Part shown: positions 1 to 15,890 of the stretch, one piece after another
Layout: every line of letters starts with the position of its first letter
Numbering within the stretch: position 1 is the stretch's first letter
IMG/VR virus record: IMGVR_UViG_2681813004_000014
Coordinates: 1 to 15,890 of that record
Source of the DNA: a virus
Lineage: Duplodnaviria > Heunggongvirae > Uroviricota > Caudoviricetes
DNA: 15,890 bases
Reading direction: 5' to 3' (one strand)
Translations under genes and position numbers: made by a program
The notes under the pieces: model-generated
What the model saw: the letters and a program-made list of their open reading frames with translations, nothing else
The model's database searches: none
What the model was told of the DNA's origin: nothing

Positions 1-78
1 CCGCTGAGCAGGCGGTCGGTTCTGGGCAGGGTCGGGTTCGTCCTGAAAACTCCCCCCCACCCCGTCCGGCTGCCTCAT
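1..78 (-). CDS. N-terminal fragment of a gene continuing past the left window edge (possibly a terminase subunit)
   Basis: ATG at 76-78 on minus strand overlaps the upstream stop (ATGA coupling); reading frame MRQPDGVGGEF... stays open to position 1. Identity is a guess from operon context. Confidence 0.3.
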   Translation of the reverse strand, partial: MRQPDGVGGSFQDEPDPAQNRPPAQR

Positions 79-260
79 CAGCGATTGCGAAAACATTCCA
101 TGACCTCGCGGTCACGGTCGGTTAATCGCTTCGCTGTGGTGCGTTTTGTGCGCCCTGTCCTGTTGGCTTTGTGCTCTGTCTCCTGTGTCTTCCATGTGTC
201 ACGCTGCCTTATCAGTCCACGTATCAGCCTGGTTTGCTCCTGTTCAGTCATCATCGCCAT
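78..260 (-). CDS. Hypothetical small basic protein (~60 aa)
   Basis: C-terminal part of track ORF 78..494; the N-terminal part overlaps the HNH gene in another frame, so an internal Met (MAMMTEQEQTRLIRGL...) is the likely start. Rich in R/K/T, no recognised motif. Confidence 0.3.
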   Translation of the reverse strand: MAMMTEQEQTRLIRGLIRQRDTWKTQETEHKANRTGRTKRTTAKRLTDRDREVMECFRNR

Positions 261-684
261 ACATCCAGTCGTTACGGTGTGCCGCCCGTTCTTCCTGCTC
301 GCGATACATGCCCGCTTTACGGTTTGCTTTCGTGGCTGGATCTTCCCGTGTGGTCTTACGGTTGTGGCACGTCTGGCACAATGCCTGGTGATTCCACTCA
401 GGCCAGAAGAGAACATCATTACCGCCATCGATGGGGATAATGTGATCCACCACCACGGCGGGCGTGTATATTCCTTTTTCCAGGCAATGCGCACATAACG
501 GGTTTTTACTCAGGTACATAGCGCGGTATTTCTCCCACTGCCTCGTATACCCTCGCTCCCTGCTGCTGCCTCTCCGGCTGTCCTGCTGCTGGCGTGCGCT
601 GCGTCTGTGCTCCTCACACTTCCCGGACTTCACGCGCCTGTTGCAGCCTGGTTGTGTGCATCGTCTCAATGGTTGCCACGGCAT
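244..684 (-). CDS. HNH endonuclease
   Basis: Cys-rich N-terminus (CTQPGCNRRVKSGKCEEH) and HNH core motif DHIIPIDGGNDVLFWPEWNHQALCQTCHNRKT; start overlaps the upstream connector stop. Confidence 0.8.
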   Translation of the reverse strand: MPWQPLRRCTQPGCNRRVKSGKCEEHRRSARQQQDSRRGSSRERGYTRQWEKYRAMYLSKNPLCAHCLEKGIYTPAVVVDHIIPIDGGNDVLFWPEWNHQALCQTCHNRKTTREDPATKANRKAGMYREQEERAAHRNDWMYGDDD

Positions 685-980
685 CAGTACACCCCCACAT
701 CACGATAAACCGACCAGAGCGCGGAAATCGTCAGGGGAATTTCTTTTGTATCGGTATCGCCAAGCGTTGTCCGGTACTCGTACAGTTGCGAGATGTACAT
801 CAGGCAACCAATTTTTATTGCAGGGGTAAATTCCAGGCCGTCATCAAAACGCCTGCCAATATGCTTCTGGCATACCTCCAGCGCCGCGCTTATGTATGCC
901 TGAATCAGTGTGTCTTCTGTGTTACCATCTATGCGGCAGTGAAGTTTGGCCTCTTCCAGGGTTATTTTTTCTGCTGTCAT
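684..980 (-). CDS. Head-tail connector protein (gp6-like)
   Basis: 98 aa, N-terminus MTAEKITLEEAKLHCRIDGNTEDTLIQAYISAA typical of gp6-like connectors; sits in the head operon. Confidence 0.7.
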   Translation of the reverse strand: MTAEKITLEEAKLHCRIDGNTEDTLIQAYISAALEVCQKHIGRRFDDGLEFTPAIKIGCLMYISQLYEYRTTLGDTDTKEIPLTISALWSVYRDVGVY

Positions 981-1315
981 TTTTCTGTACCCACCTTTGC
1001 CAGAATTTCCAGCCGGGTTCTTTTCGCATCAGGTAAGGGGATCCCGATGATATTAAGCGTGCTCCCGGCAAAAGCGCCGGTAAGCACTTTCAGGCGACTG
1101 GCGGCGGATATGTCGCCACGATAGCGAACCCATACCCGAATCGTTGCAGGTGCGGTTTCTGCGCCTGCGGTCAGTAATTCCCGTCCGCTGATCCCCTTGA
1201 CCTCTGCCCAGATGGTTTCCCCTTCCGTCCATATCTGCTGGATCGCACCTGACGGCAGGCGCTGTGTGGTAAATGTCATAATCGTCACCCGGTCCCGCAT
1301 CTTTCCGGCTATCAT
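977..1315 (-). CDS. Head closure / head-tail adaptor protein (gp7 / SPP1 gp16-like)
   Basis: 112 aa with MRDRVTI...IWAEVKGISGRE...IRVWVRYRGDI pattern; 4-bp overlap with portal stop. Confidence 0.65.
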   Translation of the reverse strand: MIAGKMRDRVTIMTFTTQRLPSGAIQQIWTEGETIWAEVKGISGRELLTAGAETAPATIRVWVRYRGDISAASRLKVLTGAFAGSTLNIIGIPLPDAKRTRLEILAKVGTEK

Positions 1316-2529
1316 TCGTCACCGCCCTTACTGTTCTTGCTGATTGTCACTTCCTGCTTCCATGCCTGGCTGAACTCGTCACCACCTTCACGCGGCGGCA
1401 TTCCCTCACGCTCACGGGCTTCGTTCGGATTGATGATCCCGTTCTTAATCCCTTTCTCATACGTGGCGTAACGTTCGGTAGGGGTGGCGCGTAATAAATC
1501 GGCTGAATCAAACTCAACCAGATAACGGGTTCCAGGCACGGGAGAAGCCACCAGCAAAGCGGCCTTGATTTGCTGTTCGAAGTTCGCCAACCAAGGACGC
1601 ATTGTCATGGTCAGAAACGCGCGGCTTGCCTCACTGAAATTGCTGTAGGTGCTGTTGCTGTATTCCTGCAAAAAAATCGGCGAGACGTTGAACATTCGGG
1701 CGATGTCTTCAATGGTAAAGCGACGGGAGGCCAGCCATTCAGCATCCTGATTACTCATGCCCAGCTGCTGATAGCTCATACCCCCTTCAAGGATGGGCGT
1801 TTTTCCGGCGTTTCTGGCCCCTTTGTAGCGTTCCAGTGCGGCTAATGCCTGTTTGCCCTTCACGCCGTCCAGCCATTCGCCTGACGTGATAACCCCTGCC
1901 GCCATCATGCCATCACGCATCACGCTCGCGCCGTGGCGTTGTTGGGCCAGCCCAAGCCCCAGCGATTCGCGGCAGATGGTTACAGGTGAGCGCCCCATAA
2001 AGCCGTCATCCGTGGAGTAACGAAGGTGGAGAACCTCCCACGGTAAATAGTTGCGGGTGTTTCCGGTGTAGGCGTCAGTGATGCAGTAGCGCCAGTTATG
2101 CTCACCTGTCTGCTCCACGTTCACCGACTGCGGCGGGTAAGGATGTAAAGCCACCGGAAAACCATCACGCCCCCACTGAATCACCGCATAAGCATTACCG
2201 TTTAACAGGCAGTGGCGGATCATCATTCGCTTAAACTGGTAGGGGGTTTGCCATGCGTTCGGGCGCTCGTTGAGGATGTGATCGACCGGATGAGAATCAA
2301 GCCACTCGCGGGCCTCCTTCCCCTTCTCATTGCGTACCAGGTACAGGTAACACGGCATGGTAGCCACCGCCTCAGAGATGACCGTCACGGCGTTCATGAC
2401 GGCGGGCAGTGATTCCGCTGTCCCCGATGATACGTACTCACCCGCCCCCGTGTTCGATGTGCCCGCCAGCGCCATAAATTCATCAAGCGTCATGCTGCGC
2501 TGCTCTTTTTTTCTTCTGAAAAGCCACAT
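1312..2529 (-). CDS. Portal protein, HK97 family (copy 1)
   Basis: 405 aa; near-identical to ORF 3552..4760 except the C-terminal tail; immediately upstream of prohead protease. Confidence 0.85.
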   Translation of the reverse strand: MWLFRRKKEQRSMTLDEFMALAGTSNTGAGEYVSSGTAESLPAVMNAVTVISEAVATMPCYLYLVRNEKGKEAREWLDSHPVDHILNERPNAWQTPYQFKRMMIRHCLLNGNAYAVIQWGRDGFPVALHPYPPQSVNVEQTGEHNWRYCITDAYTGNTRNYLPWEVLHLRYSTDDGFMGRSPVTICRESLGLGLAQQRHGASVMRDGMMAAGVITSGEWLDGVKGKQALAALERYKGARNAGKTPILEGGMSYQQLGMSNQDAEWLASRRFTIEDIARMFNVSPIFLQEYSNSTYSNFSEASRAFLTMTMRPWLANFEQQIKAALLVASPVPGTRYLVEFDSADLLRATPTERYATYEKGIKNGIINPNEAREREGMPPREGGDEFSQAWKQEVTISKNSKGGDE

Positions 2530-2530
2530 A

Positions 2531-3103
2531 TCACACCCCCGCTAAATCCACCCACCAGCGGCGATTATCCGCACGCGGCATTTTTTCGGGGTGCTGCTCA
2601 TACAGGGAACGGCGGGCCAGCTCCACGCCGGAATCGGGGTAAGCCGGTACCGATGTAACGGTAATTTCGTACAGTTCCGCCACCAGCACGGTACGAACGC
2701 ATGGATCTGTTGTGGTATCCCATACATCCTTACGGGAGCGAAAGCCAAAGCTCATGCCGGATATATCACCGCGTTTAACCAGTTCGATAACGTCGCGCCC
2801 TGTACTGGTATCCGGTGGGGTCAGTTCAAAGCGTAACCCTGTTTCGTCCTCTTCCAGTTTCAGCGTGCCGGAACGGGTGCGCCCCAGTAACATGCTGTGG
2901 TCATGCTCATACAGGCCGCGAACGTCATTACCCGCCGCAAGCCATTCAGTAAACGCCCCCCGCTGGAATTTTTCGTAAAACTCACCCCATAACAGTTCTG
3001 AAAGCTTATCCCAGCGAACAACGTAGCCCGTCAGCGTACCGGCTCCGCTCGTGGTGATTTCCGATGACCGGATTTCCATACTCTTCATAATTTTTTCACC
3101 CAT
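2531..3103 (-). CDS. Prohead protease, HK97 family (copy 1)
   Basis: 190 aa with DHSMLLGRTRSGTLKL and GMSFGF motifs; identical in protein sequence to ORF 4762..5334. Confidence 0.85.
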   Translation of the reverse strand: MGEKIMKSMEIRSSEITTSGAGTLTGYVVRWDKLSELLWGEFYEKFQRGAFTEWLAAGNDVRGLYEHDHSMLLGRTRSGTLKLEEDETGLRFELTPPDTSTGRDVIELVKRGDISGMSFGFRSRKDVWDTTTDPCVRTVLVAELYEITVTSVPAYPDSGVELARRSLYEQHPEKMPRADNRRWWVDLAGV

Positions 3104-3113
3104 AAAACACTAA

Positions 3114-3131
3114 AGGGGCTTTTAAGCCCCT
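3114..3131 (-). terminator. Hairpin 3' of the capsid-derived ORF (copy 1 of duplicated unit)
   Basis: Inverted repeat aggggct/agcccct with 4-nt loop followed on minus strand by a T-rich run; possible partial terminator or mRNA stabiliser. Confidence 0.3.
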
Positions 3132-3142
3132 TCTGTATGCTG

Positions 3143-3559
3143 TTAATCGTCGTCCTGTGGCAGTTCCAGAATCTTGATCGCGTTCGAATCCACCACGCCA
3201 CCGCCTAAATATTTCTGCGTGAAAATTTTGATGAAGCCCGGCTCTGTGATGTTGTCCGGTCTGGTGCGAACACCTGTTTCGTGATCAACAATGTAGTAAC
3301 CGCGTTTGAAGTCACCCAGGGCAATAACGTTATCAGGCATAAACTCCAGATATTCGACCGGAAGGCCCAGCAACGTATCAGGATCACCCGCCTGTAAACG
3401 GTCGCGCCAGATGTAATCACCGTTCGCGTTCTTCACCTTCTGAAGTTTTGCCGATGACGCGTTTCTTGTATACATTTTCAGAAGTTCGCCTTCTCCGGAA
3501 AAGTCATCAAGGCGAAGATGTGCCCTGACTTCATCAGGTGTAATTTTTTCTTCACTCAT
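3143..3559 (-). pseudogene. Chimeric ORF: gp6-like connector N-terminus (~35 aa) fused in frame to the last ~103 aa of the major capsid protein
   Basis: C-terminal part is identical to the end of capsid ORF 5374..6576; N-terminus MSEEKITPDEVRAHLRLDD resembles the start of connector ORF 684..980; Shine-Dalgarno-like aaggtg sits 6 nt upstream of ATG at 3559. Track ORF extends to 3640 but that region overlaps portal copy 2. Confidence 0.55.
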
Positions 3560-4760
3560 CTTTTTCACCTTTAATTTCCACCGTCTGCTTCCATGCCTGG
3601 CTGAATTCGTCGCCACCTTCACGCGGCGGCATCCCCTCACGTTCGCGGGCTTCGTTCGGATTCATGATCCCGTTCTTAATCCCTTTCTCATACGTGGCGT
3701 AACGTTCGGTAGGGGTGGCGCGTAATAAATCGGCTGAATCAAACTCAACCAGATAACGGGTACCAGGTACGGGAGAAGCCACCAGCAAAGCAGCCTTGAT
3801 TTGCTGTTCGAAGTTCGCCAGCCACGGGCGCATTGTCATGGTCAGAAACGCGCGGCTTGCCTCACTGAAATTGCTGTAGGTGCTGTTGCTGTATTCCTGC
3901 AAAAAAATCGGCGAGACGTTGAACATTCGGGCGATGTCTTCAATGGTAAAGCGACGGGAGGCCAGCCATTCAGCATCCTGATTACTCATGCCCAGCTGCT
4001 GATAGCTCATACCCCCTTCAAGGATGGGCGTTTTTCCGGCGTTTCTGGCCCCTTTGTAGCGTTCCAGTGCGGCTAATGCCTGTTTGCCCTTCACGCCGTC
4101 CAGCCATTCGCCTGACGTGATAACCCCTGCCGCCATCATGCCATCACGCATCACGCTCGCGCCGTGGCGTTGTTGGGCCAGCCCAAGCCCCAGCGATTCG
4201 CGGCAGATGGTTACAGGTGAGCGCCCCATAAAGCCGTCATCCGTGGAGTAACGAAGGTGGAGAACCTCCCACGGTAAATAGTTGCGGGTGTTTCCGGTGT
4301 AGGCGTCAGTGATGCAGTAGCGCCAGTTATGCTCACCTGTCTGCTCCACGTTCACCGACTGCGGCGGGTAAGGATGTAAAGCCACCGGAAAACCATCACG
4401 CCCCCACTGAATCACCGCATAAGCATTACCGTTTAACAGGCAGTGGCGGATCATCATTCGCTTAAACTGGTAGGGGGTTTGCCATGCGTTCGGGCGCTCG
4501 TTGAGGATGTGATCGACCGGATGAGAATCAAGCCACTCGCGGGCCTCCTTCCCCTTCTCATTGCGTACCAGGTACAGGTAACACGGCATGGTAGCCACCG
4601 CCTCAGAGATGACCGTCACGGCGTTCATGACGGCGGGCAGTGATTCCGCTGTCCCCGATGATACGTACTCACCCGCCCCCGTGTTCGATGTGCCCGCCAG
4701 CGCCATAAATTCATCAAGCGTCATGCTGCGCTGCTCTTTTTTTCTTCTGAAAAGCCACAT
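3552..4760 (-). CDS. Portal protein, HK97 family (copy 2)
   Basis: 402 aa; same as copy 1 except a different C-terminal tail (…KQTVEIKGEKDE). Confidence 0.85.
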   Translation of the reverse strand: MWLFRRKKEQRSMTLDEFMALAGTSNTGAGEYVSSGTAESLPAVMNAVTVISEAVATMPCYLYLVRNEKGKEAREWLDSHPVDHILNERPNAWQTPYQFKRMMIRHCLLNGNAYAVIQWGRDGFPVALHPYPPQSVNVEQTGEHNWRYCITDAYTGNTRNYLPWEVLHLRYSTDDGFMGRSPVTICRESLGLGLAQQRHGASVMRDGMMAAGVITSGEWLDGVKGKQALAALERYKGARNAGKTPILEGGMSYQQLGMSNQDAEWLASRRFTIEDIARMFNVSPIFLQEYSNSTYSNFSEASRAFLTMTMRPWLANFEQQIKAALLVASPVPGTRYLVEFDSADLLRATPTERYATYEKGIKNGIMNPNEAREREGMPPREGGDEFSQAWKQTVEIKGEKDE

Positions 4761-4761
4761 A

Positions 4762-5334
4762 TCACACCCCCGCTAAATCCACCCACCAGCGGCGATTATC
4801 CGCACGCGGCATTTTTTCGGGGTGCTGCTCATACAGGGAACGGCGGGCCAGCTCCACGCCGGAATCGGGGTAAGCCGGTACCGATGTAACGGTAATTTCG
4901 TACAGTTCCGCCACCAGCACGGTACGAACGCATGGATCTGTTGTGGTATCCCATACATCCTTACGGGAGCGAAAGCCAAAGCTCATGCCGGATATATCAC
5001 CGCGTTTAACCAGTTCGATAACGTCGCGCCCTGTACTGGTATCCGGTGGGGTCAGTTCAAAGCGTAACCCTGTTTCGTCCTCTTCCAGTTTCAGCGTGCC
5101 GGAACGGGTGCGCCCCAGTAACATGCTGTGGTCATGCTCATACAGGCCGCGAACGTCATTACCCGCCGCAAGCCATTCAGTAAACGCCCCCCGCTGGAAT
5201 TTTTCGTAAAACTCACCCCATAACAGTTCTGAAAGCTTATCCCAGCGAACAACGTAGCCCGTCAGCGTACCGGCTCCGCTCGTGGTGATTTCCGATGACC
5301 GGATTTCCATACTCTTCATAATTTTTTCACCCAT
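4762..5334 (-). CDS. Prohead protease, HK97 family (copy 2)
   Basis: Protein identical to copy 1. Confidence 0.85.
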   Translation of the reverse strand: MGEKIMKSMEIRSSEITTSGAGTLTGYVVRWDKLSELLWGEFYEKFQRGAFTEWLAAGNDVRGLYEHDHSMLLGRTRSGTLKLEEDETGLRFELTPPDTSTGRDVIELVKRGDISGMSFGFRSRKDVWDTTTDPCVRTVLVAELYEITVTSVPAYPDSGVELARRSLYEQHPEKMPRADNRRWWVDLAGV

Positions 5335-5344
5335 AAAACACTAA

Positions 5345-5362
5345 AGGGGCTTTTAAGCCCCT
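5345..5362 (-). terminator. Hairpin 3' of the major capsid gene (copy 2 of duplicated unit)
   Basis: Same inverted repeat as 3114..3131, offset by 2231 bp. Confidence 0.3.
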
Positions 5363-5373
5363 TCTGTATGCTG

Positions 5374-6576
5374 TTAATCGTCGTCCTGTGGCAGTTCCAG
5401 AATCTTGATCGCGTTCGAATCCACCACGCCACCGCCTAAATATTTCTGCGTGAAAATTTTGATGAAGCCCGGCTCTGTGATGTTGTCCGGTCTGGTGCGA
5501 ACACCTGTTTCGTGATCAACAATGTAGTAACCGCGTTTGAAGTCACCCAGGGCAATAACGTTATCAGGCATAAACTCCAGATATTCGACCGGAAGGCCCA
5601 GCAACGTATCAGGATCACCCGCCTGTAAACGGTCGCGCCAGATGTAATCACCGTTCGCGTTCTTCACCTTCTGAAGTTTTGCCGCCGTTGTGGAGTTAAC
5701 CACCCATACCGCGTTCTTGCGGTATTTTTTACGCAATGCAAATTTCAGGTCGATCAGCGGGTCCGCAGATGTCCACGCCAGACCGTGAGCGGGCTTGATA
5801 ACCTGCAACGTTCCGAAGTCGCGTTCTTTGTCGCTCTTCTCTGCACGGGGGACGGATAAAAAGCCTTTTGCTTTTTTGTCACCGTCGCCCACAACCAGAT
5901 CGCTTTCTTCGGTTTCCGTGAAGGTGTCGCCAATCTCGCCCGTCAGCCATGAAAGGATGTCCACATCGGAAAAATCCACGATTTCCTGTGTGGTGCGCGG
6001 GTACGCATAGACCGGATACAGCTTAATGCTCACCTCGTTAATCTTCGGGGTGCTGGTCTGTTCGCGTGCCTTACCCTCTTCACCGTGGTTAACGGTCGCA
6101 CCGCCAGCGGAAACAAGCTGCTTAAACTCGTTGCTGCTGATTTTCTTCACGGTACAGATGCGGCGCATGGTGGATTCATCCGCCAGTATTCGCATGATTT
6201 CGGTGTTCAGTTCGGGGATAACGGTATAACCACCATCAGCGGCAACGCCTGTACTTAATGCGCGGGTTTCACCTGTCAGAATGTAGTTGCGTAGTTCTGC
6301 GGGGTCAGTGGTCTGACTGCTTTTACCTGGCTTGCTGCGCTCTTCGTCTGCAATGGCTTCAAGGCGGGAAATGTCTTTATCGAGGGATTCAGCTTTAGCG
6401 CGTAATTCGTCAAATTTTGCGCCCTCAGCATCGTTAAGACTGCGGTTTTCTTTTTCCGCGTTCTCCAGCATGTCGCGCATCTGATTTTTAATGGCGGTTT
6501 TCTGCTGGCGTAATTCGATTATTCTCGGCATAAAAAAAAGTCCTGGGGTTAAGTAAGGAACTCCAGGACGCGACAA
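5374..6576 (-). CDS. Major capsid protein, HK97 family, with N-terminal coiled-coil delta domain
   Basis: 400 aa; N-terminal heptad-rich segment (IIELRQQKTAIKNQMRDMLENAEKE…) then a capsid-like body. Track start at 6576 is a TTG; an ATG at 6531 (MPRIIELRQQ) is an alternative start. Confidence 0.85.
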   Translation of the reverse strand: MSRPGVPYLTPGLFFMPRIIELRQQKTAIKNQMRDMLENAEKENRSLNDAEGAKFDELRAKAESLDKDISRLEAIADEERSKPGKSSQTTDPAELRNYILTGETRALSTGVAADGGYTVIPELNTEIMRILADESTMRRICTVKKISSNEFKQLVSAGGATVNHGEEGKAREQTSTPKINEVSIKLYPVYAYPRTTQEIVDFSDVDILSWLTGEIGDTFTETEESDLVVGDGDKKAKGFLSVPRAEKSDKERDFGTLQVIKPAHGLAWTSADPLIDLKFALRKKYRKNAVWVVNSTTAAKLQKVKNANGDYIWRDRLQAGDPDTLLGLPVEYLEFMPDNVIALGDFKRGYYIVDHETGVRTRPDNITEPGFIKIFTQKYLGGGVVDSNAIKILELPQDDD

Positions 6577-6902
6577 ACACTCAACCGTTTTTCATAAGGA
6601 AATCAGCAATCGCACCGATCGTTTTCCCGCCTGGTAATGAATATTGGCGAGCACATTAACAGGCGGTAAAGTGGCCCCAGCGTCCTGGCACCACGGGCGA
6701 GAATAATCATGATTCAGTTCGGGTAAAATATGCCGATCCGCTCAGTGAACAACCTGGAACAACCACGAACAAATAATTTACAAAACCTGAAAAAATAAAT
6801 AAGCTGTTCCGTACATTTTCTGCTCGTTAATCAGGAGGAACGAACTATGTCAGAAAATGAACTGAAAAAAGCAATGTTCATTCAGCAACACTTCTAAAAA
6901 TA

Positions 6903-7509: not shown

Positions 7510-7543
7510 GCTGTACCTCACTGCTTAAAACGGTATCCCGTCC

Positions 7544-7815
7544 CCGTACGGATCATCGTGCTGGCCTGTCTGTTGTTTTGCCCTGTTCAGTGCGTCAGTA
7601 GCCTGGCCCTGCTGGCCTTTTTTGCCGCCCGGTCGCACTGTCCGCGCACTGATTACGCTGTCTGCGATGACCTGCCAGCCCGTACGGATCATCGTGCTGG
7701 CCTGTCTGTTGTTTTGCCCTGTTCAGTGCGTCAGTGGCCTGGCCCTGTTGACCTTTTTTGCCGCCCGGTCGCGCCGTTCGCGCACTGATTACGCTGTCTG
7801 CGATAACCTGCCAGC
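7544..7815. repeat. Tandem 136 bp duplication (2 copies, a few mismatches) at the 3' end of ssb
   Basis: 7544..7679 and 7680..7815 align at a 136 bp offset with a handful of substitutions. Confidence 0.85.
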
Positions 7816-8086: not shown

Positions 8087-8334
8087 GCTGTCTGCTCTCC
8101 GGTTTTAACGTTGATGGTTGTTACCTGTTCCGCTCCGGCAATCTCCCGTTGTGTCAGCGTGGCAAAGTTTGCCGCCGCTGTGGTCATGAATGCGCTAATC
8201 AGTTCGGGATGCGCTTTCGCGTATCCTTCTCCGGCGTGGCGGTCTATCGTTCTGATTGCCACCTTTAAGGCGTGCTCTGTCATGTCTAACGCTTTATATT
8301 TTGGCGCTGTCTTATCTCTGGTTTTTCTGTTCAT
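8083..8334 (-). CDS. Hypothetical protein (start uncertain: 8364, 8334 or 8283)
   Basis: Track ORF 8083..8364; the 5' part lies inside the iteron array, so a later start is more plausible. Stop overlaps ssb start. Confidence 0.4.
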   Translation of the reverse strand: MNRKTRDKTAPKYKALDMTEHALKVAIRTIDRHAGEGYAKAHPELISAFMTTAAANFATLTQREIAGAEQVTTINVKTGEQTA

Positions 8335-8550
8335 TCCCCACCACTCCCCACTTTTGCTCCCCACTTTTTAAATTCCCCACTTGCTCCCCACCTCGTTTTT
8401 TGAGTGAATGTAATGCTTTGTTTTTCATTGCGTTTTTTACTCCCCACTTTTTTGGATGTATACAGGTGGGAAAGTGGGGAATTATGTTTCAATTTTGTTA
8501 AATTCCCCACTCTCCCCACTTTTACTACCCACTTTTTACAGTGGGTAAAC
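8334..8550. repeat. Iteron array, putative replication origin
   Basis: At least 9 direct copies of (t)tccccac(tttt), inverted copies near 8463-8482, an AT-rich spacer around 8394-8440, and a palindrome tacccac…gtgggta at 8526-8546; directly 3' of the replication gene. Confidence 0.6.
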
Positions 8551-9942
8551 ATCATCCCCATCGACACAAATCACGCCGTCTTTTTCCAGCTTGGACAGCC
8601 AGCGCCGGAAGTGCTTCATCTCATACCCCAGCTTTTTCATATCGTCGCGGAGAAGGGCGATAGTGCATGGCTCTTTGTGTGCCGTCCGCGTTCTGATGCA
8701 CTGCCATAGCGCGGCGTGATTCTCCGATTTGTTGCCTGCTTCCTCGATGCGCTCCAGTTCAGCAGGGGCGCGGGGAACGTCAATCACCACCATAGACACA
8801 ATCTCTTCCCCATCGGTATCGGTAAACACCTCCACGCTTTTAAGGTCGTATGCACTCTCTTTTGGCTCCTCTGCGTCCTTCATCTTCGTACACGCCGCCA
8901 CCAGTGCTGTAACGTCTGAATTTTCCCGGCTGATTCGGTACTCTGCATCAAGCGCGGCACGGAATGCGCTGGAACCACGCGCCCCCTTTGTTTCATCCTT
9001 GCCGGAATGGTGAACCACCAGCACCGTGGCCCCTGTGGCCTGCTTTATCGCGTCACACCCCTGGATAAATGCGCCCATATCACGGGAATCATTTTCATCA
9101 TTCCCACCAAAGCAACGGGCCAGTGTGTCGATCACAATCAGCCGCACATTTTCGCCCGTTCTGCTCTTAACAAGTCCGGCAGTCCTGATAACCTGCTCCA
9201 CATAGTCAGGCGATGCAGGGAAAACAGGCGCGTTAATGATGCACAAATCTGTAACCACCTTGTCGTGGGTTATCTCCCACGCCTTAACGCGGCGTTTTAC
9301 GCCCATACTGCCTTCGCCAGCGATATAGATAACCGCGCCCTTACTCACCCTGCGGCCTCCCCATGCCATACCTGTGGCAACATGGCACGACCAGGAAATG
9401 GCGAGGAACGATTTATAAGAACCGCTGGCCCCGTAGGTGCTGCATAATGACTCAGCCGGAATAAGCCCCTTAATGACGTAGCTTTGCTGCGCGTCGAATC
9501 CCTCAGAACCCCATGAGATGGGAAGCGTGATTTTTCTCTTTCCGCCATTCATGACCAGGCTTTCCCCTCTCTCCCATGTTTCCCGTAGTCGTGGTAGCTG
9601 GTCGCTCCAGTCCTCAAGCAGTTCGAAATTTTCAGAAAGTAGCCGCGCCTCCTGGACTCCGGCGATCGCCAGTTTTGTGGCAATGGTCAGCATCTGCATA
9701 TCGTCCAGGTTTCCGGCGCGTATGACCTTTACCCTGTATCGTCCTTCATCAACAATCTGTAAGTTGTCCAGTTCGCTTAACTGATAACGGCCCAGGTAAA
9801 CCGGAGGGATGGGATCGCCTGCTTTTTTGGCCTGTGCAATCATGTAATGTTCTGCAAAGGAGTGAGCATTATCACCCGCAAAAATAACCGCCTCAGTGTG
9901 TTTATCTTTCGGTAACAGTTTTACGTTCGGTGCAAGTTTCAT
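8536..9942 (-). CDS. Replication protein with RecA/RepA-like P-loop ATPase domain (putative primase-helicase)
   Basis: 468 aa; Walker A-like YGASGSYKSF, Walker B-like RLIVIDTLARCFGGNDEND, then VLVVHHSGKD…RGSSA, as in RepA/AAA_25-type replicative ATPases. Confidence 0.75.
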   Translation of the reverse strand: MKLAPNVKLLPKDKHTEAVIFAGDNAHSFAEHYMIAQAKKAGDPIPPVYLGRYQLSELDNLQIVDEGRYRVKVIRAGNLDDMQMLTIATKLAIAGVQEARLLSENFELLEDWSDQLPRLRETWERGESLVMNGGKRKITLPISWGSEGFDAQQSYVIKGLIPAESLCSTYGASGSYKSFLAISWSCHVATGMAWGGRRVSKGAVIYIAGEGSMGVKRRVKAWEITHDKVVTDLCIINAPVFPASPDYVEQVIRTAGLVKSRTGENVRLIVIDTLARCFGGNDENDSRDMGAFIQGCDAIKQATGATVLVVHHSGKDETKGARGSSAFRAALDAEYRISRENSDVTALVAACTKMKDAEEPKESAYDLKSVEVFTDTDGEEIVSMVVIDVPRAPAELERIEEAGNKSENHAALWQCIRTRTAHKEPCTIALLRDDMKKLGYEMKHFRRWLSKLEKDGVICVDGDDVYPL

Positions 9943-10466: not shown

Positions 10467-11021
10467 TTAATCCCCGTCCGTCGTTTTTCTTAAAACAGTT
10501 TCCGTTACGAAATCAGCATAGTTAGCGGCGATATCAAGAATATTTAGCCCTGTATCCCTGTGCTCATCAGTGCAAAGAAAGAAAAAAGCCACCCGCATAA
10601 TTTCAGATATTGACGAAAGCGCATCAGCCGCATTATCAGGAACGCCGGAAAATTCCTGTTTCAGGGAATTAAAACGATCATCACGCATAACCCCCCCATT
10701 TTCACAATCAGCAATCAGGATGGCTTTAGCCTCATTCAGCGCCATATCAGCGGTTAGCTGTGCGTAGGCCAGCGAATGCGGGATTATTGCCCCTGTATAT
10801 TCCGGCTCTCTGGTAATGTGTTTTTCTGCGGTTGCTGCCGTGCATGAAATATCAATCAGCGCGTGCATTAGCGTTATGATGGCTTCGGCGGCTGCGTCCG
10901 GACGGATCTCTCTGGTAATGTGTTTTTCTGCGGTTGCTGCCGTGCATGAAATATCAATCAGCGCGTGCATTAGCGTTATGATGGCTTCGGCGGCTGCGTC
11001 CGGACGGATGTTATTGCACAT
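10467..11021 (-). CDS. Hypothetical protein (184 aa) with internal duplicated 34 aa segment
   Basis: Contains IRPDAAAEAIITLMHALIDISCTAATAEKHITRE twice in tandem. Confidence 0.5.
   Translation of the reverse strand: MCNNIRPDAAAEAIITLMHALIDISCTAATAEKHITREIRPDAAAEAIITLMHALIDISCTAATAEKHITREPEYTGAIIPHSLAYAQLTADMALNEAKAILIADCENGGVMRDDRFNSLKQEFSGVPDNAADALSSISEIMRVAFFFLCTDEHRDTGLNILDIAANYADFVTETVLRKTTDGD
10806..11009. repeat. Perfect tandem 102 bp duplication, in frame
   Basis: 10806..10907 is identical to 10908..11009. Confidence 0.85.
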
Positions 11022-11379
11022 GGCGCACCCCCTGAATAACCTGATATCCGCAACTGGTCAGCAATTCGATAAATTCCGGCAGTGTGCCGAAACAGCAATC
11101 ATCACGCAGCCGTTCGCAGGATACCTCGACGCCGTTTTCGTAGTGACTCACCATACATCCGGTAAAATGCAGATCATCATCGTGATGGCTCGTTGACGGT
11201 TTCATCAGTCGCGCACGTTCCGCCAGTTCAAGCAATGCTTCAACGCTTCCGGCAATTGCACCATCCGGCAGGTGATAATTACTTACTACGCGTCCATTCT
11301 CTACATTGACGAGTAGCTGTCCGGTAAATTTCTCACGAAACTGAACGCGGTTAAGATCGGTAAGTGACAGGTTAATCAT
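11011..11379 (-). CDS. Hypothetical protein (~122 aa)
   Basis: Internal ATG at 11379 (MINLSLTDLNRVQ…) is preceded by aggggg at about 7 nt; track ORF extends to 11496 but overlaps the upstream gene. Confidence 0.5.
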   Translation of the reverse strand: MINLSLTDLNRVQFREKFTGQLLVNVENGRVVSNYHLPDGAIAGSVEALLELAERARLMKPSTSHHDDDLHFTGCMVSHYENGVEVSCERLRDDCCFGTLPEFIELLTSCGYQVIQGVRHVQ

Positions 11380-12209: not shown

Positions 12210-12434
12210 TTACGCTGCCTTGCCTGAATTAATGCGATCCCGGCTTTTAACCCATTCCATAACCTCGGACAGCAGCCAACCTACAGAACGACCGCCCAGA
12301 TTAAGGCGTGACGGAAATCGCCCTTTTTTCTCCAGTTCGTAGCGTGTAGTGCGACACACTCCAGTTAACTTACGACATTCATCCTCACGGATTACGCGAT
12401 CTGATAGTGATTGAAATTGTGTATTTTGATTCAT
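12210..12434 (-). CDS. alpA: AlpA-family transcriptional regulator
   Basis: 74 aa; …CRKLTGVCRTTRYELEKKGRFPSRLNLGGRSVGWLLSEVMEWV matches the AlpA HTH pattern of CP4-57-type islands. Confidence 0.85.
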   Translation of the reverse strand: MNQNTQFQSLSDRVIREDECRKLTGVCRTTRYELEKKGRFPSRLNLGGRSVGWLLSEVMEWVKSRDRINSGKAA

Positions 12435-12528: not shown

Positions 12529-13244
12529 TTTTTGCGTTTTTGTTGAGATTCACGCCCCAAATACTTTTGCCATGTCTGCCAATGTGTTTTGGGAAATTCT
12601 ATCCCTCTGGATGCAGCTATAGAATCAATTAAATCTGCTATTTTAGGTAATGATTCCGTGTCTAGGTCTACATCACCCATTTCTGGAATAAGTTTAATTA
12701 AAGAGTAAATAACCTCATTCCTTTTTGCTGCTCTTTTGGGGTTATCTTCTGTAAGATTACGAAAACTACCTTCATCTTTTACATTATTTAAATCATCTGC
12801 CATCACACATAAATAATCAACATCTATATCAAATGGCTTGAGATTTTCCCCTTCTGGAGTTATTTCTAATCCACCGCCAAGTCTATCAGGGTAAAAATAT
12901 AATGTTGGTGAGCTTATGATGTTATTATGTTTAAACTCAATATCAGAGAACGCCTTTTTGTTTACATAGAAAAAACCAGCAATAAAATTTGCTATATATA
13001 ATCTATCATCTATTTCCTTCTCTAAATTAATTGTTTTGCCGTCCTGGAATATTAGTCCATTCCGTTTATTATCTTTAAATCCCTCAAGAAAATAAACCTC
13101 ACAGTTCCCAACACTATGCTCAGGAATAAATACAGAAATATCAATGGCACCTGTACTAGCGAAATGATAGAGATCCCTTATTGTACATCCTAACTTTTCT
13201 GCCGCTTCAGGTAACGGATAATAGAGTCTTTTAGGTAATTTCAT
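12525..13244 (-). CDS. Low-GC cargo protein of unknown function, possible N-terminal HTH
   Basis: 239 aa; markedly AT-rich compared with flanking int and alpA; N-terminus LPEAAEKLGCTIRDLYHFASTGAI resembles excisionase/MerR-type HTH; 4-bp overlap with int stop. Confidence 0.7.
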   Translation of the reverse strand: MKLPKRLYYPLPEAAEKLGCTIRDLYHFASTGAIDISVFIPEHSVGNCEVYFLEGFKDNKRNGLIFQDGKTINLEKEIDDRLYIANFIAGFFYVNKKAFSDIEFKHNNIISSPTLYFYPDRLGGGLEITPEGENLKPFDIDVDYLCVMADDLNNVKDEGSFRNLTEDNPKRAAKRNEVIYSLIKLIPEMGDVDLDTESLPKIADLIDSIAASRGIEFPKTHWQTWQKYLGRESQQKRKK

Positions 13245-14461
13245 TTAGCCACCTTCAGCATAACAATATTTTCATGATTTCCAGCCAGCACATCAAGACG
13301 CTCAACCCACAGATTCAACGCGTCCCGCTTTGCCTGTAAATAGCGTGAATGGTTATAGGTTTTTTGCTGACCGGGCATCTGATGCGCTGTGATGTGCTCC
13401 ACGATATGCGGATCGACACCTAAATCGTTCAGCATCGTTGTAAACGTGTGGCGAAAGTCATGCAGCGTCCAGTGTTCCTGGTTAAGCCGCTTATGCGCAT
13501 TTCGCCCATATTGCGCTACCGTGGTATCTTTTTTCAGTTCTCCGAGTAATAACCCTGTATGCCGGTTCTTCTCCACCAGCTTCTGAATGAACGGCAAAAT
13601 GCCATCGGGGATTGGCCTGAATATCGTTACCTTCGTTTTGCTATGCTCTTTTGGCACTGTCCACAACATTTCTTTCAGATCCCATTCTTTGATCTCTGAA
13701 AGTCTGACCTCTGCCGTTCTGCACCCGAACACAATCAGCAAGCGCATTAACGCGCTGTAGTAAGGCGCGAACACATCACCATCGATAGCGCGTAAAATTT
13801 CCTTTAATTCGCTGTTACTGTGCACCCTCTCGCGAATTTCTGCTCTCTTACCCACATCGCTGACGATCAAATCGTCCAGGGCATTACTGAACGCGTAGCG
13901 CCTCCTGCGGCAGAACTTTAGCGCCTGTTTGCAGGTTTGCATGACGTGCCCTGCTGCTACTGGTGCTTTTTTTCGTACACGGTCAAAACATGCGATCCAC
14001 TGCCTTGTATCGCATTTATCAAGAGGAATTGCCCCTATATGGCAAATGATGTGCTTATCCATACGTTGCACCAGCTTTATGTAGTCTTTGCGGTTACCCT
14101 TCGCATATTCATCCAGCCAGTAGTTAATCGCCTCCTTCACCGTAACGGGTTTTAGCGCTTCCTGTACTGTGGCGCACAACTCATAACGGGGGTTTTTACC
14201 CTCAGCCAGCCATGCCCGGCACTGTGCGCGTTTTTCCCTTGCAGCTTTCAGCGACAATTCAGGGTAAGCCCCCAGCTTTAACCGCTCTGCGGCAACCTCA
14301 CGGCCTCCCGTTCGGTACCGGAAATACCAGGTTAATTTGCCGCCCTTTGAGTGTTTAATCTCCAGCCCGCCCCCGTCGGAGTAAAAACGCTCTTTTTCTG
14401 CCTGGACAGCCGCCAATTTTTTTAACGTCGAATCGCTCAGTTTGTTTAGTGCTTTTCCCAC
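13241..14461 (-). CDS. int: Tyrosine integrase, P4-like
   Basis: 406 aa with catalytic-region pattern …LHDFRHTFTTMLNDLGVDPHIVEHITAHQ…YNHSRY; located at the island edge. Confidence 0.9.
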   Translation of the reverse strand: MGKALNKLSDSTLKKLAAVQAEKERFYSDGGGLEIKHSKGGKLTWYFRYRTGGREVAAERLKLGAYPELSLKAAREKRAQCRAWLAEGKNPRYELCATVQEALKPVTVKEAINYWLDEYAKGNRKDYIKLVQRMDKHIICHIGAIPLDKCDTRQWIACFDRVRKKAPVAAGHVMQTCKQALKFCRRRRYAFSNALDDLIVSDVGKRAEIRERVHSNSELKEILRAIDGDVFAPYYSALMRLLIVFGCRTAEVRLSEIKEWDLKEMLWTVPKEHSKTKVTIFRPIPDGILPFIQKLVEKNRHTGLLLGELKKDTTVAQYGRNAHKRLNQEHWTLHDFRHTFTTMLNDLGVDPHIVEHITAHQMPGQQKTYNHSRYLQAKRDALNLWVERLDVLAGNHENIVMLKVAK

Positions 14462-15183: not shown

Positions 15184-15864
15184 ATGACCGAATTTACAAC
15201 TCTTCTTCAGCAAGGAAACGCCTGGTTCTTCATCCCCAGCGCCATCTTACTTGGTGCGCTTCATGGCCTGGAACCAGGGCACTCAAAAACGATGATGGCG
15301 GCGTTTATCATCGCCATCAAAGGCACCATTAAACAAGCGGTGATGCTCGGACTGGCAGCAACTATTTCGCATACCGCAGTGGTCTGGTTAATTGCCTTTG
15401 GCGGGATGGTGATCAGTAAGCGCTTTACTGCTCAATCAGCAGAACCGTGGCTCCAGCTGATTTCCGCAGTGATCATTATTAGCACCGCGTTCTGGATGTT
15501 CTGGCGTACCTGGCGCGGCGAACGCAACTGGCTGGAGAATATGCACGGGCATGATTATGAGCATCATCATCACGATCACGAAGATCACCACGACCATGGA
15601 CATCATCACCATCACGAACATGGCGAGTATCAGGATGCCCATGCACGAGCCCATGCCAATGATATTAAACGACGCTTTGATGGTAGAGAGGTCACCAACT
15701 GGCAAATTTTGTTATTTGGCTTAACAGGTGGTCTTATCCCCTGTCCGGCAGCAATTACCGTGCTGTTGATTTGCATTCAGTTGAAAGCCCTGACACTGGG
15801 CGCAACACTGGTCGTCAGTTTCAGCATTGGCCTGGCGGGTAATGCTGCCAACTTACTGATTTAG
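15184..15864 (+). pseudogene. rcnA: Nickel/cobalt efflux protein RcnA, interrupted by IS1
   Basis: N-terminus and His-rich loop (HGHDYEHHHHDHEDHHDHGHHHHHEHGEYQDAH) match RcnA; after …SFSIGLA the reading frame runs into IS1 terminal sequence and stops early (226 aa, shorter than intact RcnA). Confidence 0.85.
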
Positions 15865-15890
15865 TGTATGATGGTGTTTTTGAGGTGCTC
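15839..15890 (+). mobile_element. IS1 terminal inverted repeat and adjacent sequence (partial, runs off window)
   Basis: ggtaatgctgccaacttactgatttagtgtatgatggtgtttttgaggtgctc matches the IS1 end as I recall it, with one variant base. Confidence 0.85.

Follow-up and report, generated by a model that had tools for sequence, protein, structure and literature searches.

[quoted passage not shown] In Proteobacteria their morphogenesis genes run in the order capsid, protease, portal and head connectors, and a size of about 10-15 kb has served as a criterion (10.1101/2022.09.08.507074), with a later screen using a range of 10-18 kb (10.1101/2025.02.11.637232). Within the packaging module it is the adaptor and connector genes that diverge, and they determine tail specificity (10.1101/2025.02.11.637232). 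The stretch of DNA analysed here (the window) is the complete 15,890 bp contig AOTC01000266.1 of the draft assembly GCA_001447405.1, which has at least 266 contigs, and its element is an E. coli cf-PICI satellite adjoining rcnR/rcnA, with genes on the minus strand. It is like the prototype EcCIEDL933 (Alqurainy et al., 10.1101/2022.09.08.507074) in its proteobacterial layout and in its integrase, AlpA, replication module, head genes and HNH, but it is unlike the cf-PICIs described or retrieved in that a block of portal, protease and capsid 3′ end stands twice in the deposited sequence, with a chimeric joint. The island genes are ordered int, alpA, RepA-type helicase, SSB, PerC, capsid-protease-portal-connectors and HNH, and the main features outside the repeated block are as follows.

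14461..13241, minus strand: integrase with Arm-DNA-bind_3 and Phage_integrase domains, neighbouring rcnR/rcnA
12434..12210, minus strand: AlpA-type regulator (Phage_AlpA)
9942..8536, minus strand: RepA-family helicase (AAA_25)
8325..8540: CTCCCCAC iteron-like repeats
6531..5374, minus strand: full-length major capsid protein, HK97-fold, 385 aa (Phage_capsid, Pfam)
1315..977, minus strand: head-closure protein (Phage_HCP, Pfam)
980..684, minus strand: gp6-like connector (Phage_connect_1, Pfam)
684..244, minus strand: HNH protein (Pfam)

Several cf-PICI traits are present. The tyrosine integrase lies at the island end in a prophage-free chromosomal site, and this rcnR-side site is also used by related islands in O157:H7 and S19-141. 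There is an AlpA-type regulator together with the island's own replication module (helicase and SSB), and the Pfam families Phage_capsid, Peptidase_S78, Phage_portal, Phage_HCP and Phage_connect_1 are matched in series. The HNH gene represents the hnh-terS-terL packaging set in the window, the left end of the contig sitting immediately before terS; terS and terL, which occupy the corresponding position in the LH50-c and S19-141 islands, fall past the contig end. No tail or lysis genes are found in the 15,890 bp window. With its duplications the island is estimated at about 16.8 kb, compared with about 14.2 kb in its relatives.

The nearest single-copy relative is that of E. coli LH50-c (NZ_CP100500.1, 3183-3197 kb), in which the portal gene is followed by head-closure and connector genes, and which is 99.77 % identical to window positions 5..3453 and 99.5 % identical to 3585..6889, in both cases without gaps. 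A further point of similarity is that consecutive WP_05810104x accessions cover portal A, the head-closure protein and the HNH protein. LH50-c differs in having a single block with no junction, a single 102-nt unit and a single SSB 3′ end (the extra copies in the window are described below), and its island is integrated elsewhere, adjoining roxA. The downstream order of head-closure, gp6-like connector and HNH, which we call type I, is shared by LH50-c, S19-141 and O26 11368. The type II islands, such as those of E. coli KFu019 and 042, are prophage-embedded, lying inside a prophage terL gene, and resemble PICIs described as helper-embedded (PMC10111431); they have the gene order portal, connector and HNH without a head-closure gene, and their capsid, protease and portal core are only ~77 % identical to the window. 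They are nevertheless 93-99 % similar to its PerC/SSB segment and to 10691..11038, and ~14 % of the window is at least 93 % identical to them. We note that E. coli has two connector architectures, portal to head-closure to connector and portal to connector.

An offset-2231 self-comparison aligns 1354..3453 with 3585..5684 at a period of 2231 nt with 12 mismatches, so that the two-unit repeat of the original prediction stands as a feature of the deposited sequence, with coordinates that were at most 1 base off; its gene labels, including those of the two complete portal and protease genes, were also correct, as judged by Pfam. At 99.4 % identity over 2.1 kb, the repeat is far beyond chance. The differences (at 1375, 1381, 1402, 1411, 1414, 1432, 1531, 1537, 1561, 1590, 1594 and 1597) are clustered at one end, 1598..3453 being 100 % identical to the partner copy, and they represent natural alleles, 11 of the 12 falling at the third base of a codon in the portal gene, which is read on the minus strand. 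The repeated block and its joint are made up as follows.

3585..5684, minus strand: repeat unit B, with capsid codons 283-385, protease B and all but the last 11 codons of portal B
5334..4762, minus strand: prohead protease copy B (Peptidase_S78), identical to copy A
4760..3552, minus strand: portal B, 402 aa, WP_058101047.1, with a type I core and a type II C-terminal tail (...QTVEIKGEKDE)
3559..3143, minus strand: chimeric ORF, 138 aa, WP_058101046.1, with a Phage_capsid match in its C-terminal part only
3454..3584, minus strand: unique junction between the units, from the offset self-comparison
3468..3584, minus strand: type II patch, 117 nt, 100 % identical to KFu019-type islands
3454..3467, minus strand: orphan filler of 14 nt, AAGAAACGCGTCAT (minus strand), without known template
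1354..3453, minus strand: repeat unit A, with the capsid 3′ fragment, protease A and all but the last 14 codons of portal A
3103..2531, minus strand: prohead protease copy A (Peptidase_S78)
2529..1312, minus strand: portal A, 405 aa (Phage_portal), with a type I tail (...QEVTISKNSKGGDE)

The joint consists of the type II patch, the 14 orphan nucleotides and then the capsid gene from codon 283. Within the patch (3468..3584) are the last 11 codons of portal B, which form its alternative tail, and 92 nt from the 5′ end of a gp6-like connector gene, the start codon (ATG) of which overlaps the stop codon of the portal gene. The identity to KFu019-type islands runs past the junction into unit B, and 3468..3791 as a whole is 100 % identical to islands of the portal-connector-HNH order (KFu019); this upholds the earlier suggestion that two related head modules, not simple slippage, were involved, and the alignment to related islands, suggested as a way to find the donor of the junction segment, points to type II islands such as that of E. 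coli KFu019. The capsid part of the chimeric ORF had been predicted to be fused in frame to the start of the connector, and it is, but the approximate counts of 35 and 103 codons are replaced by connector residues 1-31, five filler or joint residues and capsid residues 284-385 (102 residues). The SD-like sequence attributed to this ORF is the native ribosome-binding site of the gp6-like connector gene. The 14-nt filler is contiguous with neither flank in any complete E. coli genome, has no copy at two or fewer mismatches in the window or the fetched loci, and matches no adapter sequence in a by-eye comparison. The breakpoints of the 2231-nt joint show neither a repeat nor microhomology.

The same contig contains two further private, blunt tandem duplications, of 136 nt and 102 nt, with joints at 7678/7679 and 10907/10908. 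The 136-nt duplication frameshifts the SSB gene, whose product loses its C-terminal DGIPF tip. Relatives are single-copy for all three duplicated units (2231, 136 and 102 nt) and the products of the duplications are unique; all three rearrangements are expansions, with no deletions, and microhomology is 0-1 nt at every joint. All three joints lie inside segments common to type II islands, the chance of all falling within the ~14 % shared part being about 0.003 (a rough, post hoc figure). The capsid breakpoint (5684/5685) is 4 nt from position 5689, where a naturally variable patch has its first SNP, and many unrelated assemblies, draft and Logan, have contigs that begin at 5676-5681, within 4-8 nt of 5684, which points to an assembly-graph branch point. 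No allele boundary was found to coincide with the connector-side breakpoint at 3468, and the boundaries of the 136-nt and 102-nt units match no contig breaks in other drafts.

Of 5,426 complete E. coli genomes, not one spans the joint, and an exact search for it in contigs from genomes and metagenomes gave no match. In a set of about 15 billion proteins, this contig is the sole source of the chimeric ORF and of portal B; portal A, a common natural allele, is found as the exact protein on 680 contigs. The combination of the portal B core with the type II end is seen in no complete genome, and no other connector-capsid fusion was found among the homologues.

The circumstantial evidence leans towards an assembly artefact, the outcome that the original prediction had itself named as telling against it. 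From the sequence comparisons we judge that the 2.2-kb duplication is, on balance, probably an assembly or scaffolding chimera of two related cf-PICIs and not the chromosome as written. The genome would then hold a type I and a type II cf-PICI; one contig would have come from the rcnA side via capsid, protease and portal, slipped across to the type II island where the portal 3′ ends of the two types are almost the same, and stopped ~120 nt on, in the type II connector gene, and a second would have started at the capsid repeat boundary and continued through protease, portal, head-closure and HNH. Their 2.1-kb overlap would have been abutted and not merged, with 14 junk bases filling the gap, and similar but smaller joins would account for the 136-nt and 102-nt duplications. 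Consistent with this, the source is one contig of a fragmented draft, it ends before terS, where multi-copy sequence would break assembly, and the duplication is private to it and accompanied by similar anomalies, making three private blunt tandem duplications in 15.9 kb; an intact island matches the module at 99.8 % identity, a divergence too small to have allowed time for three rearrangements to arise independently. Reads of two co-resident islands would tangle in just those type II-like segments that hold the joints, the capsid breakpoint is near a recurrent contig start or graph branch point, and a second island in the genome would be expected to supply natural alleles like those that distinguish the two copies. 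The arrangement is like the false duplications of draft assemblies (unmerged contig ends, repeat mis-threading) in being private, blunt, expansion-only and in paralogue-shared regions, with one boundary at a recurrent contig break point, although the 14-nt filler and the connector-side breakpoint fit no specific known failure mode. A graph or overlap assembler, however, requires reads containing the joint; the filler matches neither parent, so that the gap-fill account is ad hoc, breakpoint 3468 is off any allele boundary found, and the boundaries of the two smaller units are off the contig breaks of other drafts. The consensus is also otherwise clean, being gapless against LH50-c over 3.4 kb, and a tandem duplication that is real and has a junction of its own forms a simple loop, which an assembler would legitimately resolve in this way. 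If the assembly chimera is the correct explanation, then the chimeric ORF (WP_058101046.1), portal B (WP_058101047.1) and the truncated SSB (WP_058101051.1) are RefSeq entries produced by mis-joining and neither real proteins nor natural variants.

A real but non-functional rearrangement, involving a co-resident chromosomal type I and a prophage-embedded type II cf-PICI, is a tenable though doubtful alternative, whether by replication-associated template switching of the MMBIR/FoSTeS type or by illegitimate deletion between tandemly integrated islands. A nascent strand could have copied capsid, protease and portal, crossed by homology at the shared portal 3′ end, copied the type II portal tail and 31 connector codons, dissociated, gained 14 nt and re-primed without homology at type I capsid codon 283; the 136-nt and 102-nt duplications would be more switches in the one event, and the product may be clonal or confined to a fraction of the replicating island DNA. 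Complex template-switch (MMBIR) junctions are described as having a short insertion and no microhomology, as does the specific sequence of this joint, and the type II patch matches real islands at 100 %, the joints lie in segments common to both types, where homology-driven switching would begin, the copy differences are natural and mostly synonymous, and consensus quality is high; if the joint reads are real, the graph (in->C->B->J->C->A->out) forces the tandem layout. But the arrangement is known from one draft only, a perfect 2.1-kb tandem repeat is unstable in a recA+ cell, and a real rearrangement needs three blunt duplications and no deletions within 16 kb, although the island otherwise matches an intact relative at 99.8 % identity, while leaving unexplained why the capsid breakpoint is at a common assembly break point. 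The SSB would moreover be inactivated and the island enlarged from ~14.2 to ~16.8 kb, near the capacity of a T=4 head by a rough, unverified estimate. A real joint would capture one instance of non-homologous exchange between two lineages of cf-PICI, placed exactly where portal meets connector, in an oversized island that is still most likely a dead end. A functional role for the duplication or the chimera is unlikely, and we give very little credence to a selected duplication in which two portal tails widen connector/tail docking or the chimera is a dominant-negative inhibitor of head assembly in a competitor or the helper. The ORF does retain the native, translationally coupled connector start and is in frame (by chance 1 in 3), and the portal-connector boundary is a meaningful site of module exchange (tail specificity, 10.1101/2025.02.11.637232), but there is one contig with zero conservation and no second such fusion, only 31 residues remain of the type II connector, which leaves portal B without a cognate partner, and a capsid fragment amounting to a third of the HK97 fold would be unlikely to fold alone. 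It is similarly improbable that the joint is a real, multi-step template switch between a chromosomal and a prophage-embedded cf-PICI, recorded in one molecule, that gave a satellite with two portal alleles differing in their connector-facing tail and with a translationally coupled connector-capsid fusion that poisons the head assembly of a rival island or helper. Least credible is a simple tandem duplication in a single island, by slippage or unequal crossing-over at short repeats and subsequent divergence, which would suit the head-to-tail arrangement and identical copy cores but not the 117 nt foreign to the single-copy parent type, the 14 orphan nucleotides, the breakpoints without repeat or microhomology, or 12 differences that are natural alleles grouped at one end and not scattered. 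Slippage or homology-mediated tandem duplication is thus contradicted by the junction sequence itself, with its non-parental DNA and lack of microhomology.

We note, finally, that cf-PICI head modules that are ~77 % identical are yet near-identical over ~330 nt at the portal 3′ end, and this shared stretch looks like a recombination linker for exchanging connector sets.

Self-comparison of the window, shifted by 2231 nt, confirmed that one unit is doubled: 1354..3453 (unit A) equals 3585..5684 (unit B) with 12 mismatches, all within 1375-1597, of which 11 are at third codon positions of the minus-strand portal gene, and 1598..3453 is identical to its partner copy. The gene labels of the original prediction are correct according to the Pfam assignments, which give the following order.

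6531..5374, minus strand, major capsid
5334..4762, minus strand, S78 prohead protease
4760..3552, minus strand, portal B
3559..3143, minus strand, 138-aa ORF whose C-terminal part matches Phage_capsid
3103..2531, minus strand, second S78 protease, identical to the first
2529..1312, minus strand, portal A
1315..977, minus strand, head-closure protein
980..684, minus strand, gp6-like connector
684..244, minus strand, HNH

Upstream of the capsid gene are genes for PerC, SSB, a RepA-family helicase, a DUF4222 protein, AlpA and a tyrosine integrase, and rcnR and rcnA adjoin. The gene order is that published for proteobacterial capsid-forming PICIs (cf-PICIs), namely capsid, protease, portal and head connectors, then hnh, terS and terL (bioRxiv 10.1101/2022.09.08.507074), and every cf-PICI feature that can be assessed in the window is present, terS and terL lying beyond the contig end. 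Directly downstream of the RepA-family helicase gene, at 8325..8540, are at least eight CTCCCCAC-containing repeats with units of 18 to 46 nt, about 27-85 nt apart, which look like iterons belonging to the island's origin of replication.

On the minus strand, portal B runs out of the repeat at 3584 and ends in an alternative tail of 11 codons, and its stop codon is overlapped by the ATG of the following gene, which encodes MSEEKITPDEVRAHLRLDDFSGEGELLKMYT, the N-terminus of a gp6-like connector. The sequence from 3584 down to 3468 is 100 % identical to islands like that of E. coli KFu019, an identity that extends upward into unit B as far as 3791. The 14 nt past 3468 (AAGAAACGCGTCAT, minus strand) match neither parent, after which the capsid gene restarts in frame at 3453, the second base of codon 283. 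Microhomology is absent at the breakpoints of the 2231-nt joint, so neither slippage nor unequal crossing-over within a single island can account for it, and we give simple slippage next to no credit as the source of the repeat.

The single-copy island of E. coli LH50-c is 99.77 % identical to window positions 5..3453, without gaps, and 99.5 % identical to 3585..6889; its order is portal, head-closure, connector (type I). The type II islands, with the order portal, connector, HNH and no head-closure gene, are only ~77 % identical to the window over capsid, protease and portal, but 98-100 % identical over 3468..3900, the last ~330 nt of the portal gene (this stretch aligns to 9001..9433 of the KFu019 locus). 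A switch by crossover from the type I to the type II sequence within this shared portal end explains both the alternative tail and five B-specific variants at 3606-3663; the remaining differences between the copies are natural alleles too, and LH50-c mixes both patterns. Recombination between two related head modules, as originally predicted, is supported at the sequence level, with a type I core and a type II patch. The shared portal end looks like a conserved linker for exchange of the connector or tail-docking module between cf-PICI lineages. When a natural parent combining the window's core with a type II end was sought, the core was found at ≥99 % identity in three genomes only, all type I, and no complete genome joins it to a type II end; the 403-aa members of the portal cluster bear other tails. 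We note that the type II islands of E. coli KFu019 and 042 split a prophage terL gene in two, so that these cf-PICIs are embedded in a late gene of a helper prophage, like the helper-embedded PICIs described previously (PMC10111431).

All three joints in the window (that of the large repeat and those of two small duplications) fall in the ~14 % of it that matches type II islands at 93 % identity or more. This clustering points to the participation of a second, type II-like island of the same genome, whether the event took place in the cell or during assembly. The capsid breakpoint at 5684/5685 is 4 nt from 5689, the first SNP of a naturally variable patch (5689..5851) by which capsid alleles differ; no switch between type I and type II similarity occurs there relative to KFu019, and the boundary lies between type I alleles instead. 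Contigs of many unrelated assemblies start at 5676-5681, including many NCBI drafts and five Logan assemblies (SRR27430192, SRR8719686 and three more, three of the five being placeable on the window), so that the repeat starts where assemblies of two-island genomes habitually break. Other drafts contain partial capsids that start 63-101 residues from the C-terminus; a k-1 offset was dropped as their sole cause because the Logan contigs, with an assumed k of 31, start at 5676-5678, the same place as the NCBI drafts. On the connector side, no allele boundary was found at codon 31 of the type II connector genes. The contig itself ends ~50 nt before the expected terS (on the 1..243 side) and, at its other end, inside rcnA (15184..15890), and the first of these ends suggests that this genome carries terS and terL more than once, an indirect hint of a second island or a related phage.

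The window is the entire 15,890-bp contig AOTC01000266.1 of draft assembly GCA_001447405.1, and we found no paper that mentions AOTC01 or GCA_001447405. We found the joint in none of the 5,426 complete E. coli genomes, nor in a set with one representative genome for each species, nor in contigs of JGI metagenomes. Among ~15 billion proteins, the chimera (WP_058101046.1) and portal B (WP_058101047.1) are each encoded by this contig only, and portal A by 680 contigs. A homologue search for further fusions of connector and capsid, or for C-terminal capsid ORFs in a comparable setting, gave partial capsids, frameshifted capsids and connectors, and no second fusion.

The two small tandem duplications have blunt joints, at 7678/7679 and 10907/10908, and their units are single-copy in relatives. 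One consists of 136 nt twice at 7543..7814, the copies differing at seven positions; it covers the 3' end of the SSB gene and shifts the frame after ...DDPYG, so that the 163-aa product lacks the C-terminal DGIPF tip kept by the SSBs of relatives (140-141 aa), the intact end still being encoded by the downstream copy. The other, 102 nt twice at 10806..11009 with identical copies, forms an in-frame 34-residue repeat in a hypothetical protein of 184 aa (10467..11021), for which relatives have either ORFs of 73 and 79 aa or a 150-aa fusion. Both products are unique to this contig, and neither pair of boundaries coincides with contig breaks elsewhere. That three private, blunt, expansion-only rearrangements arose naturally and independently within 16 kb is difficult to accept, since the rest of the island matches an intact island at 99.8 % identity.

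We therefore lean, by a little, towards a chimera made at the level of assembly, in which one contig would have strayed onto the type II island at the portal end common to both types, another would have begun at the capsid branch point, and the two overlapping contigs would have been joined. The duplication looks less like any described satellite feature than like the false duplications that unmerged contig overlaps produce; it is seen in a single fragmented draft, and the genome itself probably does not contain it. Against an assembly chimera, the evidence consists of assembled sequence, a genuine tandem duplication with a unique junction would legitimately assemble in exactly this way, the connector-side breakpoint is at no allele boundary, the small duplications are at no breaks seen elsewhere, and the filler matches no adapter or template tested. 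The 14-mer has no copy with two or fewer mismatches in the window or the fetched loci, and no complete E. coli genome (5,426 searched) places it next to either flank. Comparison by eye with the Nextera mosaic end, TruSeq adapters and 454 paired-end linkers gave no convincing match. The adjoining TGTATA is native connector sequence, and the filler includes an MluI site (ACGCGT), though the chance of some 6-bp palindrome within 14 nt is not small (~14 %).

A real but non-functional rearrangement, possibly sub-clonal, is a substantial if lesser possibility. It would have arisen when replication switched templates between two islands of the same cell, entering the type II island through homology and re-priming without it; the mosaic copies, the filler and the concentration of joints in shared segments would be accounted for in this way too. 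A selected function appears very improbable: the chimera retains its native translationally coupled start, yet its connector part is just 31 residues long and its capsid part a third of an HK97 fold, and nothing suggests a working product from the chimeric joint. A small remainder is left for some other explanation.

If the rearrangement is real, the island would be ~16.8 kb long, compared with ~14.2 kb for LH50-c and S19-141, and portal B would have no cognate connector. The adaptor and connector genes of cf-PICIs set tail specificity (bioRxiv 10.1101/2025.02.11.637232), so the location of the junction is biologically meaningful. A length of ~16.8 kb may be near the capacity that we roughly estimate for the T=4, 47-nm cf-PICI head. 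The capsid patch at 5689..5851 is hypervariable, with 24 differences from the O26 11368 allele within ~160 nt and a similar number from that of S19-141, in genes otherwise nearly identical. It covers approximately residues 227-281 and is densest at 5783..5834 (residues 233-250). If the residue numbering is equivalent, it may correspond to the 'connector loop' (227-248) of EcCIEDL933, which has been proposed to set T=4 geometry.
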